A stretch of 64,000 nt of DNA from Planctomycetota bacterium (lineage in GTDB: Bacteria; Planctomycetota; UBA8742; UBA2392): positions 6,529 through 70,528 of the forward strand of contig JAMQHL010000047.1 in NCBI GenBank assembly GCA_025993795.1, read 5' to 3'. Shown one piece after another: positions 14,052 through 63,907 of the stretch. The notes beneath the pieces are model-generated. The model saw only the letters and a list, made by a program, of their open reading frames with translations, was not told the DNA's origin and did not search any database. The first letter of the stretch is position 1. Every line of letters starts with the position of its first letter. The position numbers and the translations under genes are program-made.

Positions 14052-14127
<76 letters not shown>

Positions 14128-57029: not shown

Positions 57030-57755
57030 ATGCCTTTCACAAAATATGGTCTGCGTGAACTGTTTCTGTTCGGCTTTGCCATTCCTGGCGCGCTTTGGGT
57101 TGGCGTTTGGGCGTTGGCATGGTTCGTCCATCCGGCCCTGTGGGCTGTGGGGGTAATCCCGCTGTTCTTGACCGGGTTCAATCTCAACTTCTTTCGCGAC
57201 CCCGACCGGCCTTTGCCCGGCGACGAATTTACCGTCGTCAGCCCCGCCGACGGAACCGTGACCGACGTCGGCGAGAAACAGTTGGACGAGTACCTGAAAG
57301 GCAAGCACCAGGGCATCGGGATATTCCTTAGCGTGTTTGACGTGCACGTGAACCGCGCGCCCCTGGATGGCACGCTTGAGTACTCACGCCATCAGGATGG
57401 CGAATACCGCGATGCCCGCGACCCCGAGTGCAGCATCTTGAATGAGGCGCAGAATCTCGGCTTCAAGAGCAAGTGGGGGCCGCGCTACTATGTGCGGCAG
57501 ATCACCGGCTTGATAGCGCGGCGCATCGTGCTGGGAATCAAGGAAGGCGAGCAGGTGAAGCGCGGCGAGCGCTTCGGCATGCTGAAGTTTGGCAGCCGCA
57601 CGGAGCTGTACTTCGACAACGATTTTGAAGTTGAATGGAAAGTGAAGGTCGGAGACAAAGTCAAAGGCGGCGGCACAGTCATCGCCATCATAAAAGTACT
57701 AGCTGGCGTTTCAGCCAAGCCAGACGGCGAAACAGCCTTGGCCACCAAAACCTGA
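57030..57755 (+). CDS. psd: phosphatidylserine decarboxylase family proenzyme (short, archaeal/bacterial-type)
   Basis: Two N-terminal TMs, and C-terminal ...RGERFGMLKFGSRTELYF carrying the G-S (pyruvoyl-forming FGS) motif in the expected position. Size (241 aa) fits the short PSD family. Confidence 0.65.
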   Translation: MPFTKYGLRELFLFGFAIPGALWVGVWALAWFVHPALWAVGVIPLFLTGFNLNFFRDPDRPLPGDEFTVVSPADGTVTDVGEKQLDEYLKGKHQGIGIFLSVFDVHVNRAPLDGTLEYSRHQDGEYRDARDPECSILNEAQNLGFKSKWGPRYYVRQITGLIARRIVLGIKEGEQVKRGERFGMLKFGSRTELYFDNDFEVEWKVKVGDKVKGGGTVIAIIKVLAGVSAKPDGETALATKT

Positions 57756-57766
57756 GGGGAGATCCT

Positions 57767-58933
57767 ATGCGCACTGTCAGCCTGATGATTGCAGGTCTGC
57801 TTCTGTTCCAAGCCGGGTTCGTGGCACAAGAATCGCCTCCGTCGAAGCGAATGGTGCAGGTCGATTTTGAGGCGGCACAATTGGACGAAGTGTTTGCGCG
57901 CATGGCAAAGCAACTGGGGTACAAGGTGCTGCTCAGCAAATCGGTTGATCCGGACACGGAAGTGACGATGGTGCTCGGGGCAGTATCTCCTGAAGTTGCA
58001 TTCGCCTTGCTCGCACACGAACTGGATCTCGCAATCGAACTGCACAGCGATCGCAAATTGATTGAGGTAGATGAGGAAGGTGGCGGCTACACATTTTACG
58101 GGCCCTATACCTACGATATCACCAAGCTGAGTGCCTCGTTTTACGCAGCCAATGCCGTGCTGGGGCCGCCTCCGAAGCGTGACGCCGAACTGCCTCCGGC
58201 AAGAGAGTCCGATTGCATATCCGACCTGCGCACCGCAATGCATTGGGCTCTGGGCCTTGAGCCCCGGCACACTGCGGGAGTCGGTGACGCTGCGGCAACC
58301 TGTTGGACGAAATCGCGCGAGCGAGTGGAATTGGAAGAGCTGATCGGGTTGCTGTCTTCCGATGGCGGTGGTCAGAGCACATGGCTGAAACTGCAGTCCG
58401 AGACCTGGAAGAAGATGAAGGAATCCCAGATGGTACTGGCGGTACAGGCACAGACGCTGTCGGAAGTTGTCGCAGTGCTGTCAGAGAAATTGGCCGCTCC
58501 CTTTCTTATCAGCCGAGAACTTCTGTACAGCGAGACGGACACTTGCAGCCTGGACCTGCCGGAGCTGACTTTCTTAGACACTCTGAGAGTAGTGTGCCGT
58601 CAGTACCATGCTCGCCCCTTCTTGATAGGCAACGTCGTCTATCTGGTCCGCGATGATGACCATCTCTCCTCGTACCCTCAGATCGGCTACGCTGTGTACA
58701 ACGTGGCCCAGTTGATTGAAGACCTGAAGACCAAGTCCGCTGTGAAGTCGGACACGCTCGGCCGGGACCTTAGGCAACAAGTCATGGATCTACTGGAAAC
58801 GGCCATTCTCAACGGAGATGATAGCGATATAGGCCCTGTCGATTTTGGAACGAGAATCCTGGTCAGGGGTGACATGCAGGTACAGGAAATCGTGCAGAAA
58901 CAGTTGATCGCGCTGGGTTGGAAACCGAGCTAG
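57767..58933 (+). CDS. secreted protein, paralog A of a tandem triplicated family (secretin-N/STN-like N-terminal module; C-terminal ...IALGWKPS)
   Basis: Signal peptide MRTVSLMIAGLLLFQAGFVAQ. N-terminal VQVDFEAAQLDEVFARMAKQLGYKVLLSKSVDPDTEVTMVLGAVSPEVAFALLAHELDLAIELHSDRKLIEV fits the STN/secretin-N pattern (v..dl..a.L.evl..la...g..v........v.l.l..v....al..ll...gL.......v). Shares blocks with paralogs B and C (YDITKL; ELIGLLSSDGGG; ...LIALGWK). Real start ATG 57767; the track start 57635 overlaps psd. Confidence 0.55.
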   Translation: MRTVSLMIAGLLLFQAGFVAQESPPSKRMVQVDFEAAQLDEVFARMAKQLGYKVLLSKSVDPDTEVTMVLGAVSPEVAFALLAHELDLAIELHSDRKLIEVDEEGGGYTFYGPYTYDITKLSASFYAANAVLGPPPKRDAELPPARESDCISDLRTAMHWALGLEPRHTAGVGDAAATCWTKSRERVELEELIGLLSSDGGGQSTWLKLQSETWKKMKESQMVLAVQAQTLSEVVAVLSEKLAAPFLISRELLYSETDTCSLDLPELTFLDTLRVVCRQYHARPFLIGNVVYLVRDDDHLSSYPQIGYAVYNVAQLIEDLKTKSAVKSDTLGRDLRQQVMDLLETAILNGDDSDIGPVDFGTRILVRGDMQVQEIVQKQLIALGWKPS

Positions 58934-58953
58934 CGCGCCAGACGGGGATCCTT

Positions 58954-60165
58954 ATGACACGGACTCTGAGCATCTTCATGTGCCTGCTAGCAGTTGTAAC
59001 GCTGGCGCGGGCGCAGGAACAACCGGTTGAGCTGACGGTCACCTGTGTGTATCCAGGCGCTGAATTGGGCGCGGCGCTGACGGACTTTGCGGGCCAGCTT
59101 GGTTACCAGGTAGATCTGGGCGAGCTTGAGGACAGCGATGAGCTCGAAGAGCCGATCTGGGTGCTCGCGCGCAACGTCAAGCCCGACGTGGCTCTGAAGC
59201 TGATCTCCGAATCCGGCCGAGTTGCGCTGCAACTGGATGCCGAAGCGCGCATGCTGCGCTGCAAGCTGGACGGCTCGGTAGTCGGCAAGCCCGAGGTTCG
59301 AGGTTTTGACGTCAAGGCGCTGACCACTGCGTTTCGCGACTACCGCAAGCGCTTTGACAAACCGCTGCCCGCCGAGGCAGGCCAGGCCCCGTCCGAGATT
59401 CTGCTTGAGGTTGTGCAGCGGGTGCTTGAGGGCGATGCCAGCACCGACACAGGATCGCCTGTCGGTACACGCCTGGTGTTTACGCGCACGGCCGACGAGC
59501 TGCGCAACATTGAAGAGTTGCTGTCGCTGCTGGCCGCTGAAAAGGGCGGCGACAGCTCAGCGTTGAGCAAAGACCGCGCGAACCGGCTGGCGCTTGAAAA
59601 GAACGCGCCGCGAGGGCTGCCTGCCGGCGCCAGTTTTGGGGCGGCCTTGTGGCGCCTGTTCGAGAAGTTCCCGGCGCCGGTGTATGTGCATCGATCGTTG
59701 CTCGAGACCGTGTTTCTGGATGACGATGCCGACGTCGCTGATATGGAAGCCGGCCCGAACGAAGTGCTTGCGCTGCTGGCAACCGAGCACAGCTTTTATG
59801 TGGACGCGCGCCATGGGGCGATGCGGCTTCACCAGCTGCATTACGCCGGCACGCCTAGTTACCGGGTGTTTGCGCTCGATGCGCTGCTGGCGGACCTGGA
59901 GAAGCAGTACAAGGATATGGCCGAAGGCGCCGACAATCCTGACGAGCTTTCACTAAAGGCTCGCGGTGGTGTCGCCGTGATCGTGGACGCCCTTGAGGCC
60001 CAGCTCGAAAGCGCCGGGCATCTTCCCCAGGTGCTGGCCTATGGTGCACGCATTGTGGTCATGGGCGGCAGCGACATCGTTGACACCGCAGCAAAGATCC
60101 TGCGTGAACTCGGCTGGAAAGACCCCGCCAAGGACGCGGGTAAGGAAGAAAGGAGCGGCAAGTGA
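58954..60165 (+). CDS. secreted protein, paralog B of the same family (C-terminal ...ILRELGWKDP)
   Basis: Signal peptide MTRTLSIFMCLLAVVTLARAQE, then N-terminal LTVTCVYPGAELGAALTDFAGQLGYQVDLG...VALKLISESGRVALQLD. Shared blocks FDVKAL, ELLSLLAAEKGGD and the LGWK tail. Confidence 0.55.
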   Translation: MTRTLSIFMCLLAVVTLARAQEQPVELTVTCVYPGAELGAALTDFAGQLGYQVDLGELEDSDELEEPIWVLARNVKPDVALKLISESGRVALQLDAEARMLRCKLDGSVVGKPEVRGFDVKALTTAFRDYRKRFDKPLPAEAGQAPSEILLEVVQRVLEGDASTDTGSPVGTRLVFTRTADELRNIEELLSLLAAEKGGDSSALSKDRANRLALEKNAPRGLPAGASFGAALWRLFEKFPAPVYVHRSLLETVFLDDDADVADMEAGPNEVLALLATEHSFYVDARHGAMRLHQLHYAGTPSYRVFALDALLADLEKQYKDMAEGADNPDELSLKARGGVAVIVDALEAQLESAGHLPQVLAYGARIVVMGGSDIVDTAAKILRELGWKDPAKDAGKEERSGK

Positions 60166-61361
60166 AAACCGCCGCCATCGTATTGCTTGCGCTGTCGCTG
60201 GCATGGTCATCGGCGAACTCGCAGGACAAGCCTGAGCCGGCCACGCTCAGCCTTTCGTACCTTGGTGTGCCTGCCGAGGTTGCGCTGACGGAGTTCGCGA
60301 GGTCCGCACGCCTGAAACTGGACCTGGGTGATGTACCGCCGGAAATGGAAACACCGGTGTGGCTGAGTGTCCAGAAGGTTGAGCTGGCGCACGCAGCAAA
60401 ACTGCTTTCCGTGGCGACCGGCCTCAGCGTGGTTGCCGACGGGAAGCGGCTGGTAGTTCGCGAGGTTCCTGAGGCAGGCAATCACCAGTTCACTCGCGGT
60501 TATGACGTGAGTGTGCTGGCGGGACGCTTTGTCGACTATGTGCGCGCCTATGGCCACCCTGACGCGGAGCGGGCAAAGGCCTCTCCGGGCAGCAAAGAAG
60601 AGCCCTATCTGGCAACCGGTGCCGAAAGCCTGGCGCACCTGATCTGTCTGGTGCTGGATGTGTTGTGGGACGCCCAACCTGCGTGCTCTGTGGTGGGGGA
60701 GCGGATACTGCTTACGACAGACCACTGGACGCACACCCGGGTGCGCGAACTTCTTGCGTTGCTGGTGTCAGACGCCGGCGGTGAGCACCCGTACACGACT
60801 TCCGGACGCGCGCAACTGGCCAAGCTTGCAACAGGCGAGGTGAAGTACGAAGCCGAGGACAGGCCGCTCGGCAGCGTGGTTGCAGGGCTGTGCAAACTGG
60901 CATCTGTCGACTTTGTGGTGCATCACGCGATTGCCACGATGTTCGCCGACGAGCACGCCACGTTGCGGGGCACCGATACCTGTGCGGGGCTGCTCGAGGC
61001 GGTCGTACGCCACGGCGGGTACGAGTTCACGACTTCCACTGCGCTGGGCGTGATCTGCTTCCGGCACGTAGACACGCCTGAGCACGGCGGTTGCAGTGTA
61101 CTCGAAACGGCGACCCTGCTGAAGCGGATTGATGCCTCGTACCAGCGGCAGAAGACAACGCCAGGAGGCCCCGAAAGCCTGCGCGCAGCGGGCGGAGTGC
61201 AGGTCGTAGTTGAAGCGACAGAGACCGCTCTCGACGCGCAGGATTGTCCGGCCATCGTATCGGCATTCGGCACGCGCGTGATCGTCATCGGCGTGCCGTC
61301 TGCATGTGACGCGGCTGCGGGTATACTGAAAGAGATGGGCTGGGAAGCGCCAAAGGAATGA
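60162..61361 (+). CDS. secreted protein, paralog C of the same family (C-terminal ...ILKEMGWEAP)
   Basis: GTG start overlapping the paralog B stop (GTGA). Signal peptide MKTAAIVLLALSLAWSSANSQ, N-terminal LSLSYLGVPAEVALTEFARSARLKLDLG...AAKLLSVATGLSVVADGKRLVV, and shared blocks YDVSVL, ELLALLVSDAGGE, LGW tail. Confidence 0.55.
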   Translation: MKTAAIVLLALSLAWSSANSQDKPEPATLSLSYLGVPAEVALTEFARSARLKLDLGDVPPEMETPVWLSVQKVELAHAAKLLSVATGLSVVADGKRLVVREVPEAGNHQFTRGYDVSVLAGRFVDYVRAYGHPDAERAKASPGSKEEPYLATGAESLAHLICLVLDVLWDAQPACSVVGERILLTTDHWTHTRVRELLALLVSDAGGEHPYTTSGRAQLAKLATGEVKYEAEDRPLGSVVAGLCKLASVDFVVHHAIATMFADEHATLRGTDTCAGLLEAVVRHGGYEFTTSTALGVICFRHVDTPEHGGCSVLETATLLKRIDASYQRQKTTPGGPESLRAAGGVQVVVEATETALDAQDCPAIVSAFGTRVIVIGVPSACDAAAGILKEMGWEAPKE

Positions 61362-62425
61362 TGCCTGACAGCAACGCACCATCCAACAGCGAACGTTTGC
61401 CGTCAACCACGGCCAGCGGTCGCATCATTCAGCTTGACACGTCAAGTGAGTCCGGCGCCCATGGCTCTGTCAACACGTCTCGCCGCCGCAAACGCCAGCG
61501 CATGCCCGGGCTGGCAATGCTGCCGACGGCACTGACGTTGGGCAACGCAATCTGCGGCATCGCTGCACTGATTGAACTGGCAAAGGCATTTGCGGCTATC
61601 GGCGTCGGGCACGGCAGCGAAGTAACGCTTCGGCTTGGGTATGCTGCGCTGCTGATCGGCGCGGGCATGCTGTTTGATGCCATGGACGGCAAGGTCGCGC
61701 GCATGACGGCGACCACGGGGCGCTTCGGCGCTGAACTCGACAGCCTGTGCGACGCCGTAACGTTCGGCGTCGCCCCGGCGATCATGATACGCGTGGGCGG
61801 CGAGTTTTTTTTCGCGCGCGCGCCTTTTGCATTCGACTTTGACACCAAGCTGCTGTGGGCCGTGTGCGGCCTGTACGCCTGCTGCGCCATTCTGCGCCTT
61901 GCGCGGTTCAATGTCGAAACCAGCGAGGTCGACGACCACAGCGTGTTTCACGGCCTTCCCAGCCCCGCCGCTGCCGCCAGCGTGTGCGCGCTGATGCTGG
62001 GTTGCACCTGGTTGTACGACCATTACCCATCGTTCAGCGAACAGCCCTGGCCGTGGGTGTTGCGGTTTGTCATCCCGATCACGTGCGCCTTCATCGGGTT
62101 GATGATGGTGACGCGCATCCGCTACGTTCATCTGTTCAATCGGCTTGTGTCGCGGCACCAGAGCCTGAAGTCGATGGTGTTCATACTGCTGATTGCGGTG
62201 GCGGTGGTGATTTTCATTGATTACTGGAAGCTGCTGGTGCCGGGACTGATGTTCGGTTATGTCCTTTCCGGTCCCATCTACTTTGCCTATCGATTTCTGC
62301 GAAACCGAGGGCTGCTGGGGCGGCGCCTCGCGATTGCCGAACGCAAACGCAGGCGTATCGAAGAGAAGGCCCTCCAACAAGCAGCGAACGATGCCCGCAA
62401 AGATCCTGCAGCCAAGCCAACTTGA
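61358..62425 (+). CDS. pssA: CDP-diacylglycerol--serine O-phosphatidyltransferase (CDP-alcohol phosphatidyltransferase family)
   Basis: The sequence MLFDAMDGKVARMTATTGRFGAELDSLCDAVTFGVAP is the D(x)2DG(x)2AR...G(x)3D(x)3D CDP-OH-P transferase motif, and it is preceded by the PssA-like TALTLGNAICG. ATG at 61358 overlaps the paralog C stop (ATGA); the true start may be the internal M at ~61502 (MPGLAMLP). Confidence 0.75.
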   Translation: MMPDSNAPSNSERLPSTTASGRIIQLDTSSESGAHGSVNTSRRRKRQRMPGLAMLPTALTLGNAICGIAALIELAKAFAAIGVGHGSEVTLRLGYAALLIGAGMLFDAMDGKVARMTATTGRFGAELDSLCDAVTFGVAPAIMIRVGGEFFFARAPFAFDFDTKLLWAVCGLYACCAILRLARFNVETSEVDDHSVFHGLPSPAAAASVCALMLGCTWLYDHYPSFSEQPWPWVLRFVIPITCAFIGLMMVTRIRYVHLFNRLVSRHQSLKSMVFILLIAVAVVIFIDYWKLLVPGLMFGYVLSGPIYFAYRFLRNRGLLGRRLAIAERKRRRIEEKALQQAANDARKDPAAKPT

Positions 62426-63446
62426 CGATGCCGCACGAATGCTGCGGGACGGTGCGCTTGTGGGTTTTCCCACAGACACCGTGTACGGCGTGGCGGCACG
62501 CGCAGACGCCGACTTCAGCAATGCAGCATTGAAGGCGTTCAAGGGCGGCCGCAGCGAGGGCTTCTCGCTTCATGCAGGCAGCGCTGACTTTGCAGTCCAG
62601 GTCGCGGGGCCTCTGCTGCCGCCCGAGGAATTTGCGGTCCGCACACTTACGCCCAACGGCGCCACGGTTGTGGTCGCCAAGGGCAGCTCATCGTTGGGGC
62701 TGCGTGTAGTGCGGCATGCGGTCGGCTCGGCGCTGCTTGAAGCGGCCGGCTTGCCTGTCATTGCTACCAGCGCCAACGAGCACGGGCAGCCGCCGCTGCG
62801 CGACCCGCATGCTATCGCCAGGCTGGGCGTTGATGCCGTGGTGGACGGCGGCGTACTGCCCGAGCGGTCGCCAAGCAGCGTCGTGCGGCTACTGCCCGTC
62901 GGGATCGAAATTCTGCGGCGCGGCGCACTTGAGAAAGACCGGCTTGCGCAGATGTACACGCAGTCGGTGCATTTTGTGTGCCTTGGCAACCTGAACCGAA
63001 GTGCGTTTGCACACCGCCTGCTTGAGGCAATGCAGAGTTGGCTGATGGGGCAGGTGCGTGACTATGTGCCGGCCTATGCGCCGACCAGCAGCGGGCTGAT
63101 TGCGCGATCGGTAAAGCGTTCACCGCCGGACATGCAGCAAGCCGCGCGGCGCTACCACGTCGCAATGGCGTCGCACGTTCCGCAGGCGTTTGATGCAGAG
63201 GTCCTGCCGGCACTGTGCGTCTCGATGGGAGATGACGTGGCGGTCGAAGTCAATGCAGCCGCGCCCGGCAAGGTGCTTCACTGGCAGATCGACGACCCGA
63301 TGGGTAAGCCACCAGGCGTGTACGAGCGCACGGCCAGGCAGGTGGTCGCGCAGATGCGTACAGACCTGCTTGCACGCTGGGCTGGTAACGGAGCGTTGGA
63401 AACCGAGTTCTTGAATCTATTCTGCGGACACGGAGATTCGCCATGA
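62391..63446 (+). CDS. tsaC: fusion protein: L-threonylcarbamoyladenylate synthase (TsaC/YrdC domain) + low-molecular-weight protein phosphatase (LMW-PTP/arsenate-reductase fold) domain
   Basis: N-terminal DAARMLRDGALVGFPTDTVYGVAARAD...VATSANEHGQPP is the YrdC/Sua5 core. The C-terminal VHFVCLGNLNRSAFAHRL is the CX5R(S) P-loop (V/I-x-F-V-C-x-G-N-x-x-R-S) of LMW-PTPs, with a later DDPMG (DP general-acid region). Start at ATG 62391 overlaps the pssA 3' end by 35 nt. Confidence 0.7.
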   Translation: MPAKILQPSQLDDAARMLRDGALVGFPTDTVYGVAARADADFSNAALKAFKGGRSEGFSLHAGSADFAVQVAGPLLPPEEFAVRTLTPNGATVVVAKGSSSLGLRVVRHAVGSALLEAAGLPVIATSANEHGQPPLRDPHAIARLGVDAVVDGGVLPERSPSSVVRLLPVGIEILRRGALEKDRLAQMYTQSVHFVCLGNLNRSAFAHRLLEAMQSWLMGQVRDYVPAYAPTSSGLIARSVKRSPPDMQQAARRYHVAMASHVPQAFDAEVLPALCVSMGDDVAVEVNAAAPGKVLHWQIDDPMGKPPGVYERTARQVVAQMRTDLLARWAGNGALETEFLNLFCGHGDSP

Positions 63447-63907
63447 TCATCGCCATTGCCTCAGATCACGCGGGATTCAAGTTGAAGCAGGCGATCATGG
63501 ATCATCTGCGGAAGGCCGGCCATCAGGTCCTGGACGAAGGCCCAACGGACGAGCAGCGCGTGGACTATCCCGATTTCGCCCAGCGCGCGGCGCGGGTCGT
63601 GGCCCGTGGCGATGCCCAGCGTGGCGTGCTGGTGTGCGGCAGCGGCATCGGCATGTGCATGAGCGCAAACAAGATTGCGGGCATTCGTGCGGTTGTGCTT
63701 CACGACGCATGGGAAGCTGAAATGTCGCGGCGGCACAACGACGCCAACGTGGCGTGCTTTGGCCAACGCAGCATGGGCGAAGATGTGGCGACACACGCGC
63801 TGGATGCATTCCTGCGCACGGAGTTTGATGGCGGCCGCCACGAAGGACGGGTTGCCAAGATCGGGCATCTTGATGGCAGCGTGAAAATTGTGGCGCCCGG
63901 TGAGTAG
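63443..63907 (+). CDS. rpiB: ribose-5-phosphate isomerase B (RpiB/LacA/LacB family)
   Basis: MIIAIASDHAGFKLKQAIMDHLRKAGHQVLDEG...GVLVCGSGIGMCMSANK matches RpiB (catalytic Cys in CGSGIG). Overlaps the previous stop by 4 nt. Confidence 0.85.
   Translation: MIIAIASDHAGFKLKQAIMDHLRKAGHQVLDEGPTDEQRVDYPDFAQRAARVVARGDAQRGVLVCGSGIGMCMSANKIAGIRAVVLHDAWEAEMSRRHNDANVACFGQRSMGEDVATHALDAFLRTEFDGGRHEGRVAKIGHLDGSVKIVAPGE

Follow-up and report, generated by a model that had tools for sequence, protein, structure and literature searches.

Introduction

In Bacillus subtilis, the genes ywlC (tsaC, BSU36950), ywlD and, immediately after it, ywlE are followed by ywlF (rpiB). The product of ywlC is presumably of the longer Sua5/TsaC2 type. 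To our knowledge, the only role worked out for phosphatases of the YwlE type is that of a partner to the arginine kinase McsB in Firmicutes, and no explanation has been offered for why their genes are conserved beside tsaC and rpiB. Here, we analyze a gene of a Planctomycetota bacterium (GTDB lineage Bacteria; Planctomycetota; UBA8742; UBA2392) in which a TsaC/YrdC-like domain and a domain with the fold of low-molecular-weight protein tyrosine phosphatases (LMW-PTP) are joined in one polypeptide of 351 amino acids (aa), directly followed by rpiB. The gene is part of a stretch of 64,000 nucleotides (nt) of the assembly GCA_025993795.1 (contig JAMQHL010000047.1, positions 6,529 to 70,528 of the forward strand), which we call the window. 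An initial annotation of the window had pointed out the fusion and likened the locus to the Bacillus neighbourhood, a comparison that is sound in outline. The three functions occur in the same order in both, as separate genes with ywlD in between in Bacillus, and as a fused ywlC and ywlE followed by rpiB, with no intervening gene, in the window.

Both halves of the protein have well-described relatives. TsaC and Sua5 share a catalytic tetrad, KxR-SxN, and Sua5 has a gating linker of about 40 aa with HY and PGM motifs (PMC10484737). In LMW-PTPs, a Thr at position 5 of the P-loop goes with phosphoarginine as substrate (YwlE, DARP) and an Ile with phosphotyrosine, according to a passage of PMC7772506 that cites Fuhrmann 2013; the same passage gives this residue as Thr11 in YwlE, which acts on the phosphoarginine made by McsB. 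A review of the tRNA modification N6-threonylcarbamoyladenosine (t6A) mentions a single TsaC fusion, TsaC/HemK of Mycoplasma genitalium. Our literature searches, which combined Sua5, TsaC or YrdC with LMW-PTP, LMWPc, YwlE or arginine phosphatase, and YwlE with rpiB and ywlC, found no description of a fusion or of a link.

A single gene encodes both domains

One uninterrupted gene encodes both domains (Table 1). In the list of open reading frames (ORFs) of the window, the frame is open without a break from 62259 to 63446 on the forward strand, and 30 aligned homologues, each opening with MPAKIL or MAAPIL, place the start at the ATG at 62391. There is neither a stop codon nor a frameshift between the domains, in agreement with the initial annotation, which had described a single ORF. 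Exactly the same protein is carried by 12 metagenome contigs. The four contigs whose surroundings were listed belong to as many assemblies, two from ENA and two from Logan, and the gene neighbours are alike in all of them. Our first homologue search, which covered 5.8 billion proteins, returned about 50 homologue clusters with 44-88% identity, equal length, full coverage and the same architecture. Every named one is a protein from a metagenome-assembled genome (MAG) of Planctomycetes.

Assembly or frameshift errors can join separate genes wrongly, and split, adjacent versions of tsaC and LMW-PTP genes do exist in other lineages, namely in Elusimicrobia (L022) and Clostridia (L064). Such an artefact is excluded here because the identical ORF occurs on 12 contigs and about 50 homologue clusters are fused in the same way, as are 138 more distant representatives described below. 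Furthermore, an AlphaFold2 (AF2) model yields one compact two-domain protein. We give the artefact next to no probability.

Table 1. Features of the fusion gene and of the genes around it (positions in the window; residue numbers refer to the fusion protein).
Feature	Positions	Strand	Description
psd	57030-57755		upstream of the three paralogues
Three tandem paralogues (388, 403, 399 aa)	57767-58933, 58954-60165, 60162-61361	+	between psd and pssA
CDP-alcohol phosphatidyltransferase (pssA-like, 355 aa)	61358-62425	+	upstream of the fusion gene
Fusion gene	62391-63446	+	351 aa and stop; a TsaC/YrdC-like domain, a short linker, a domain of the LMW-phosphatase fold and a conserved C-terminal helix
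YrdC/TsaC-type domain, aa 1-180	62391-62930	+	PF01300, PDB alignments (Sua5, MTH1692), Foldseek
K51-G-G-R54	62541-62552	+	counterpart of the catalytic KxR with one residue more; K51 and R54 invariant in the subfamily
S127-A-N129	62769-62777	+	SxN half of the KxR-SxN tetrad; invariant
Interdomain linker, aa 181-190	62931-62960	+	predicted helix 182-189; 30% mean identity
LMW-PTP/ArsC-fold phosphatase domain, aa 191-325	62961-63365	+	PF01451, family profile against PDB, Foldseek
P-loop C197-L-G-N-L201-N-R203-S204 (CX5R-S)	62979-63002	+	within FVCLGNLNRS; Cys nucleophile, Arg and Ser invariant
D302-P303-M304	63294-63302	+	DP motif with the putative general-acid Asp; invariant; aligns with the DP of ArsC and LMW-PTPs
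C-terminal tail, aa 326-351	63366-63443	+	conserved helix 334-344
rpiB (ribose-5-phosphate isomerase B, 154 aa)	63443-63907	+	ATG overlaps the stop of the fusion gene by 4 nt (ATGA)

The fusion is found in several phyla

A HMMER search with the family profile among 1.84 billion cluster representatives (50% identity, E<=1e-30) matched 288 representatives, of which the best 150 are listed. The top seven matches (393-564 bits) and a few fragments form the subfamily of the window protein. They are followed by a clear gap in the scores, from 393 to 194 bits, and the remainder of the best 150 of 288 lie at 140-194 bits. Once the set of the first search is excluded, 138 of the 144 representatives among the matches listed have both domains, with a CX5R[ST] motif downstream of the TsaC domain; most of these two-domain proteins count 345-390 aa, and the match covers both domains. 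The P-loop has Thr or Ser at position 5 in 123 of the 138 (91 Thr and 32 Ser, e.g., CTGNTCRS, CTGNSCRS, CSGNTCRS), and most of the 138 have the canonical KxR. Among the matches listed in GTDB genomes, fused genes occur in Elusimicrobia (L004, L014), Clostridia (L067, L069), unclassified bacteria and Pirellulales, of which Stieleria magnilauensis is a cultured member. The initial annotation had called the architecture unusual. We cannot follow it on this point, since the large majority of the listed representatives have both domains and IMG already gives some members the product name 'TsaC/SUA5/YrdC/protein-tyrosine-phosphatase'. The TsaC-LMWPc architecture is common in public sequence data, is already in databases, and spans several phyla. 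The window protein is part of a divergent subfamily of small size, which we saw in MAGs of Planctomycetota only.

The fusions outside this subfamily, hereafter canonical fusions, are exemplified by those of S. magnilauensis (NZ_CP036432.1, L059), other Pirellulales (P0052-P0063), Elusimicrobia and Clostridia. They share with the window protein the domain order, the short linker and a similar length (350-380 aa), and rpiB is often directly downstream, as in the window. Their motifs are KxR, WPGP, SANxSG and, as in YwlE, a P-loop of the form CTGN(T/S)CRSPMAE, and they match the Wzb/LMW-PTP models of NCBIfam at 46-66 bits. In the window protein, by contrast, KxR is replaced by KGGR, WPGP is missing, the P-loop reads CLGNLNRSAFA, and the C-terminus carries a further conserved helix. 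Identity to canonical fusions amounts to about 33% in the N-terminal domain and about 25% in the C-terminal one.

The N-terminal domain

The Pfam family Sua5_yciO_yrdC (PF01300) matches aa 17-178 with an E-value of 1.2e-23 (84 bits for a cutoff of 25.1). Foldseek searches against PDB retrieve Sua5 and TsaC2 with an E-value of 1e-12, and YrdC and YciO with TM scores of 0.64-0.74, normalised to the target. The domain has a PTDTVYG motif, and the motif that the initial annotation quoted for it, FPTDTVYGVAAR, is indeed present. Across 31 subfamily sequences (44-88% identity), the residues T28, T30, K51, R54, H61, R105, S127-A-N129 and S162 are invariant, as is H109, and in PDB alignments the invariant residues match the substrate-binding positions of TsaC/Sua5. 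When compared with type 1 TsaC and Sua5/TsaC2 structures (1HRU, 2MX1, 6F87, 3AJE, 9D3H), the protein shares their fold and keeps most residues that bind the substrates (PTDT, K, R, R..H, SxN). It differs from them by KxxR in place of KxR, by the lack of a SUA5 domain and of a gating linker, and by the presence of a C-terminal phosphatase domain instead.

The domain is likely a TsaC, and would be of type 1, TsaC-like rather than Sua5-like. It keeps every residue that contacts a ligand, as well as the synteny with rpiB, and for these reasons probably still makes threonylcarbamoyl-AMP (TC-AMP), i.e., it would use threonine, bicarbonate and ATP in the first step of the synthesis of t6A at position 37 of tRNAs. 

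One branch of the subfamily (P0011, P0019, P0022, P0027, P0031, P0041, P0045) has an 18-residue insertion, e.g., WADKEPSDPRSVEIELGD, which the window protein lacks. The insertion sits between PTDTVYG and KGGR, near the active site (columns 43-60 of alignment A1).

The C-terminal domain

The family profile of the C-terminal domain matches ArsC, 4EGS and YwlE in PDB with E-values of 3e-9 to 1e-6, and Foldseek aligns the domain with pI258 ArsC (TM 0.82), Wzb (0.74) and YwlE (0.70), normalised to the target, with a root-mean-square deviation (rmsd) of 2-3 Å. The motif FVCLGNLNRS, which the initial annotation had singled out, is present, and the full catalytic set of LMW-PTPs is kept: the CX5R(S) P-loop and the DP with the general acid. 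The stretch C197-LGNLN-R203-S204 is unchanged in all 31 aligned subfamily sequences. The invariant residues of the domain comprise C197, G199, N200, L201, N202, R203, S204, S233, G235, H262, P264, D302, P303 and M304. The fold, CX5R(S), SxG, H-x-P and DP are shared with the LMW-PTP/ArsC superfamily (YwlE 4KK3, Wzb 2WMY, ArsC pI258 1LJL, Cg_ArsC2 3RH0, 4EGS). The differences concern the P-loop, where Asn stands at position 6 in place of the usual second Cys, and the residues that follow DP, which are not aromatic as they are in the DPYY of phosphotyrosine-specific enzymes. Both domains of the protein look catalytically competent. The second is probably an active cysteine phosphatase, in which Cys197 would be the nucleophile, Arg203 and Ser204 would act in the P-loop, and Asp302 would be the general acid.

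Which substrate such a phosphatase would prefer is suggested by position 5 of the P-loop. It is Thr in YwlE and Leu201 in the 31 aligned members of the subfamily; a further representative (P0111) has Ile. Since the residue that determines specificity is no longer Thr, phosphoarginine is probably no longer the preferred substrate. We know of no McsB in the lineage of the window, and a literature search for McsB in Planctomycetes brought up nothing of use. The initial annotation had identified the two halves of the protein as TsaC and an LMW phosphatase, counterparts of ywlC and ywlE, and both folds are there. The names are another matter: the P-loop has Leu instead of Thr, the first domain has KGGR, and its score against the TsaC equivalog model falls short (see below). 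Equating the C-terminal domain with the arginine phosphatase YwlE is justified for canonical fusions but not for the window protein, because the Thr that defines the specificity is replaced by Leu.

The best sequence matches in PDB are arsenate reductases, notably 3rh0 (E 1.7e-4 with the single sequence, 3e-9 with the profile), and also 1y1l and 1lk0. In addition, the highest TM score is that of pI258 ArsC, and the segment HWQIDDPMGK resembles the HWGFDDPAGK of ArsC. Could the domain be an arsenate reductase of the LMW-PTP fold? Thioredoxin-coupled ArsC have a redox pair, Cys82/Cys89, that finds no counterpart here: the one additional cysteine (C277) falls at another alignment position and varies in the subfamily. 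A mechanism with a single cysteine, of the mycothiol type as in 3rh0, is formally conceivable. Yet, no ars genes are found in the neighbourhood (window locus and subfamily loci, ±10 kb), the sister canonical fusions are clearly YwlE/Wzb-like, and the NCBIfam models of ArsC give 14.8 bits for a cutoff of 215. With the redox cysteines and the ars context both absent, we set this identity aside as very improbable.

Among the structures retrieved, 4EGS was deposited as 'Ribose 5-phosphate isomerase RpiB'. It aligns over its full length with the LMW-phosphatase domain, with CTGNTCRS and the DP motif, and looks like a homologue of LMW-PTP/YwlE. Its name may have been carried over from a neighbouring rpiB gene.

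Linker, tail and predicted structure

The two domains are joined by a linker of about 10 aa, far shorter than the gating linker of Sua5. At the other end, the protein has a C-terminal tail for which stand-alone LMW-PTPs offer no counterpart, and whose residues A331, F340 and F344 are almost invariant in the subfamily. The AF2 model, built on the family alignment, is very confident, with a predicted local distance difference test (pLDDT) score of 94.5 and a predicted TM score (pTM) of 0.91.

Given its place in the protein, the same as that of the SUA5 domain in Sua5 proteins, the C-terminal domain might be catalytically silent, a structural module that stands in for SUA5 or serves as a lid binding phosphate or pyrophosphate (PPi) over the TsaC active site. 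The pTM suggests a fixed arrangement of the domains, the TsaC reaction releases PPi, which the P-loop could bind, and this P-loop fits no characterised class of specificity. What argues for catalysis is that Cys, Arg and Ser are invariant together with the distant Asp-Pro of the general acid, as catalysis rather than binding requires. The linker is short and without the gating motifs of Sua5, Sua5 structures fail to superpose over both domains (they span them only at an rmsd of ~18 Å in Foldseek), and the existence of split gene versions implies that the phosphatase functions alone elsewhere. We thus consider a purely structural role improbable.

A divergent SUA5 domain was also considered and rejected: Pfam finds no SUA5 domain (PF03481) in the fusion protein, the LMW-PTP motifs are invariant, and Foldseek leads to ArsC, Wzb and YwlE. 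The initial annotation was therefore right in stating that the C-terminal domain differs from that of the usual Sua5.

Possible functions of the fusion protein

The reading that we prefer, and hold with moderate confidence, is that the window protein is a divergent member of the TsaC-LMWPc family, a bifunctional TC-AMP synthase and cysteine phosphatase that derives from fused neighbours and has a shifted substrate preference. The family would have originated when the stop codon between neighbouring tsaC and ywlE-like genes was lost within a conserved tsaC-(ywlE)-rpiB cluster, such that a type 1 TsaC became joined, via a short linker, to a phosphatase of the YwlE/LMW-PTP family.

Several observations weigh against this reading. 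In the N-terminal domain, the TsaC equivalog model of NCBIfam (TIGR00057) scores 67.8 bits and its cutoff of 123.2 is missed; the divergent subfamily gives 60-75 bits, whereas canonical fusions exceed the cutoff with 132-185 bits. The KxR motif, which canonical fusions keep, holds an inserted residue, and the WPGP motif and a loop of about 10 residues of canonical TsaC are missing. Moreover, PF01300 includes paralogues that are not isofunctional and have largely conserved active sites, such as YciO. In the C-terminal domain, the match of LMWPc (PF01451) at aa 193-322 is marginal (E 1.8e-5, 25.4 bits for a gathering score of 23.2), no LMW-PTP model of NCBIfam matches the window protein or its subfamily at E<=0.01, and the P-loop is unlike that of every characterised subclass. 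Finally, the fusion of operon neighbours is by itself no proof of mechanistic coupling. The low Pfam score reflects divergence rather than a false positive, because the PDB profile matches and Foldseek firm up a match that just passes. In the N-terminal domain, since the equivalog cutoff is missed, KGGR stands for KxR, and YciO sets a precedent, TC-AMP synthesis is probable rather than certain, and conserved residues alone do not make a TC-AMP synthase in vivo, because YciO-type paralogues keep their active sites.

YciO offers a parallel in this respect. Like the N-terminal domain of the window protein, it is a member of PF01300 that falls below the TsaC equivalog threshold with its active-site residues kept, and its structure (1K7J) aligns with the domain at a TM of 0.74 (normalised to the target). 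However, YciO is a single-domain protein with a conserved basic patch on its surface, and its gene typically adjoins rnm (RNase AM), whereas the window protein has two domains and its gene has pssA and rpiB as neighbours; no rnm-like gene is found among the called neighbours of the fusion gene (±10 kb, subfamily loci).

The precedent raises the question of neofunctionalisation. In that scenario, the role in t6A synthesis would have passed to a separate TsaC or Sua5, and both domains would have drifted towards a new, linked function, possibly tied to the psd-pssA operon. Both domains are indeed far more divergent than those of canonical fusions, the changes KGGR and CLGNLNRS are specific to the subfamily and invariant in it, and the gap in the profile scores separates the subfamily from all other fusions among the matches listed. 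Likewise, only the divergent subfamily shows the close and overlapping linkage to pssA and psd. Yet, every residue of TsaC/Sua5 that contacts ATP or threonine is retained and invariant, and the presence of rpiB directly downstream, as in canonical tsaC loci, suggests orthology by position. None of these contigs contributed a further PF01300 protein to the retrieved homologues, although the search was not designed for that, and we know of no step in a lipid pathway that needs both TC-AMP synthase and phosphatase activities. Overall, we regard neofunctionalisation as possible but rather doubtful.

Our analysis establishes that the gene is continuous, that the two folds, the catalytic residues and the synteny are there, and how broad the family is; the two activities, the changed substrate and a coupling of the domains are inferred. 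The initial annotation saw in the fusion a Rosetta-stone type of support for a functional link between t6A synthesis and the phosphatase. Fused forms (L004, L014, L067, L069) and adjacent separate forms (L022, L064) are found within the same phyla, which is the classical Rosetta-stone pattern, and the argument is legitimate. The direct link is nonetheless weaker than implied. Among the matches listed, which comprise 80 GTDB loci, 23 have rpiB directly after the tsaC homologue. Five of these are fusions (L001, L002, L007, L024, L059); in the remaining 18, no LMW-PTP gene lies within 6 kb. Hence, the adjacency of tsaC and rpiB is older and broader than the association with the phosphatase, and these phosphatase-free loci, together with the TsaC/HemK fusion of M. 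genitalium and a general readiness of the genes of this cluster to fuse with their neighbours, weaken the case for a specific link.

Single-domain tsaC genes followed by rpiB, with no LMW-phosphatase gene within 6 kb, occur in Chloroflexota/Dehalococcoidia, Coriobacteriales and Erysipelotrichaceae (L034, L035, L058, L041, L054, L071, and others). As the pair is found without an LMW-phosphatase gene nearby, its conservation across phyla is independent of the phosphatase.

A bolder interpretation is that the recurrent fusion of TsaC with the YwlE family reveals an unrecognised coupling, mechanistic or regulatory, of phospho-(arginine/tyrosine) signalling and t6A modification, of which the divergent subfamily would be a version re-tuned to a new phosphatase specificity within a membrane-lipid operon. 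The phosphatase might, for instance, keep TsaC or its partners active. We consider this unlikely. Still, the fusion of tsaC and a phosphatase in well over a hundred sequence clusters of several phyla is a testable hint of a link with t6A, or at least of strict co-expression. The altered KxR and the altered P-loop provide a natural experiment on the residues that matter for TC-AMP synthase activity and for the choice of substrate by the phosphatase. These results also carry a warning for annotation, in that neither 'TsaC' nor 'arginine phosphatase' is a safe label for members of the divergent subfamily before a test. The finding is incremental and does not describe a new kind of system; the broader family of TsaC-YwlE fusions, which has gone undiscussed, is the more interesting lead.

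The surrounding operon

The gene downstream of the fusion is rpiB beyond reasonable doubt (PF02502 at 187 bits; TIGR01120 at 169 bits for a cutoff of 138.65), and it overlaps the fusion gene by the 4 nt given in the initial annotation. On the other side, the first 35 nt of the fusion gene (62391-62425) also belong to the 3' end of pssA, read in a different frame. The six genes from 57767 to 63907 all abut or overlap, which suggests a single long operon, from psd through rpiB, with translational coupling. The fusion gene would then be transcribed together with pssA, upstream, and rpiB, downstream, and its translation would be coupled to that of both. A scan for promoters and terminators around the cluster gave nothing above the shuffled expectation.

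We read the gene context of the subfamily over ±10 kb around the fusion gene. The order is kept down to 44% identity: psd, one to three paralogues of about 400 aa, pssA, the fusion gene, rpiB, a DUF6687 gene and a gene for a PilM/FtsA-like protein. Adjacency to pssA is conserved in the divergent subfamily only, and pssA was not found beside canonical fusions among the matches listed.

The three tandem paralogues between psd and pssA have N-termini that resemble signal peptides; the second shares 27% identity with the third (E 8e-29). None has a Pfam match at E<=0.1. Every subfamily relative that we examined (L085, L086, L087) has one to three copies at the same position. They constitute an uncharacterised family conserved inside a phosphatidylserine/phosphatidylethanolamine (PS/PE) phospholipid operon.

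The window contains a single tRNA gene, a tRNA-Lys(CTT) at 14052-14127 on the forward strand. It decodes an ANN codon and thus belongs to the class that bears t6A37, with no evident connection to the fusion gene.

In the subfamily, rpiB is always followed by the gene of the DUF6687 protein (326 aa, 216 bits), which in the case of the window lies just past its end (11576-12556 in L081). It is followed by the gene of a PilM/FtsA-like protein of 680-700 aa, after which two of the relatives (L085, L086) have two more genes and then a secretin gene.

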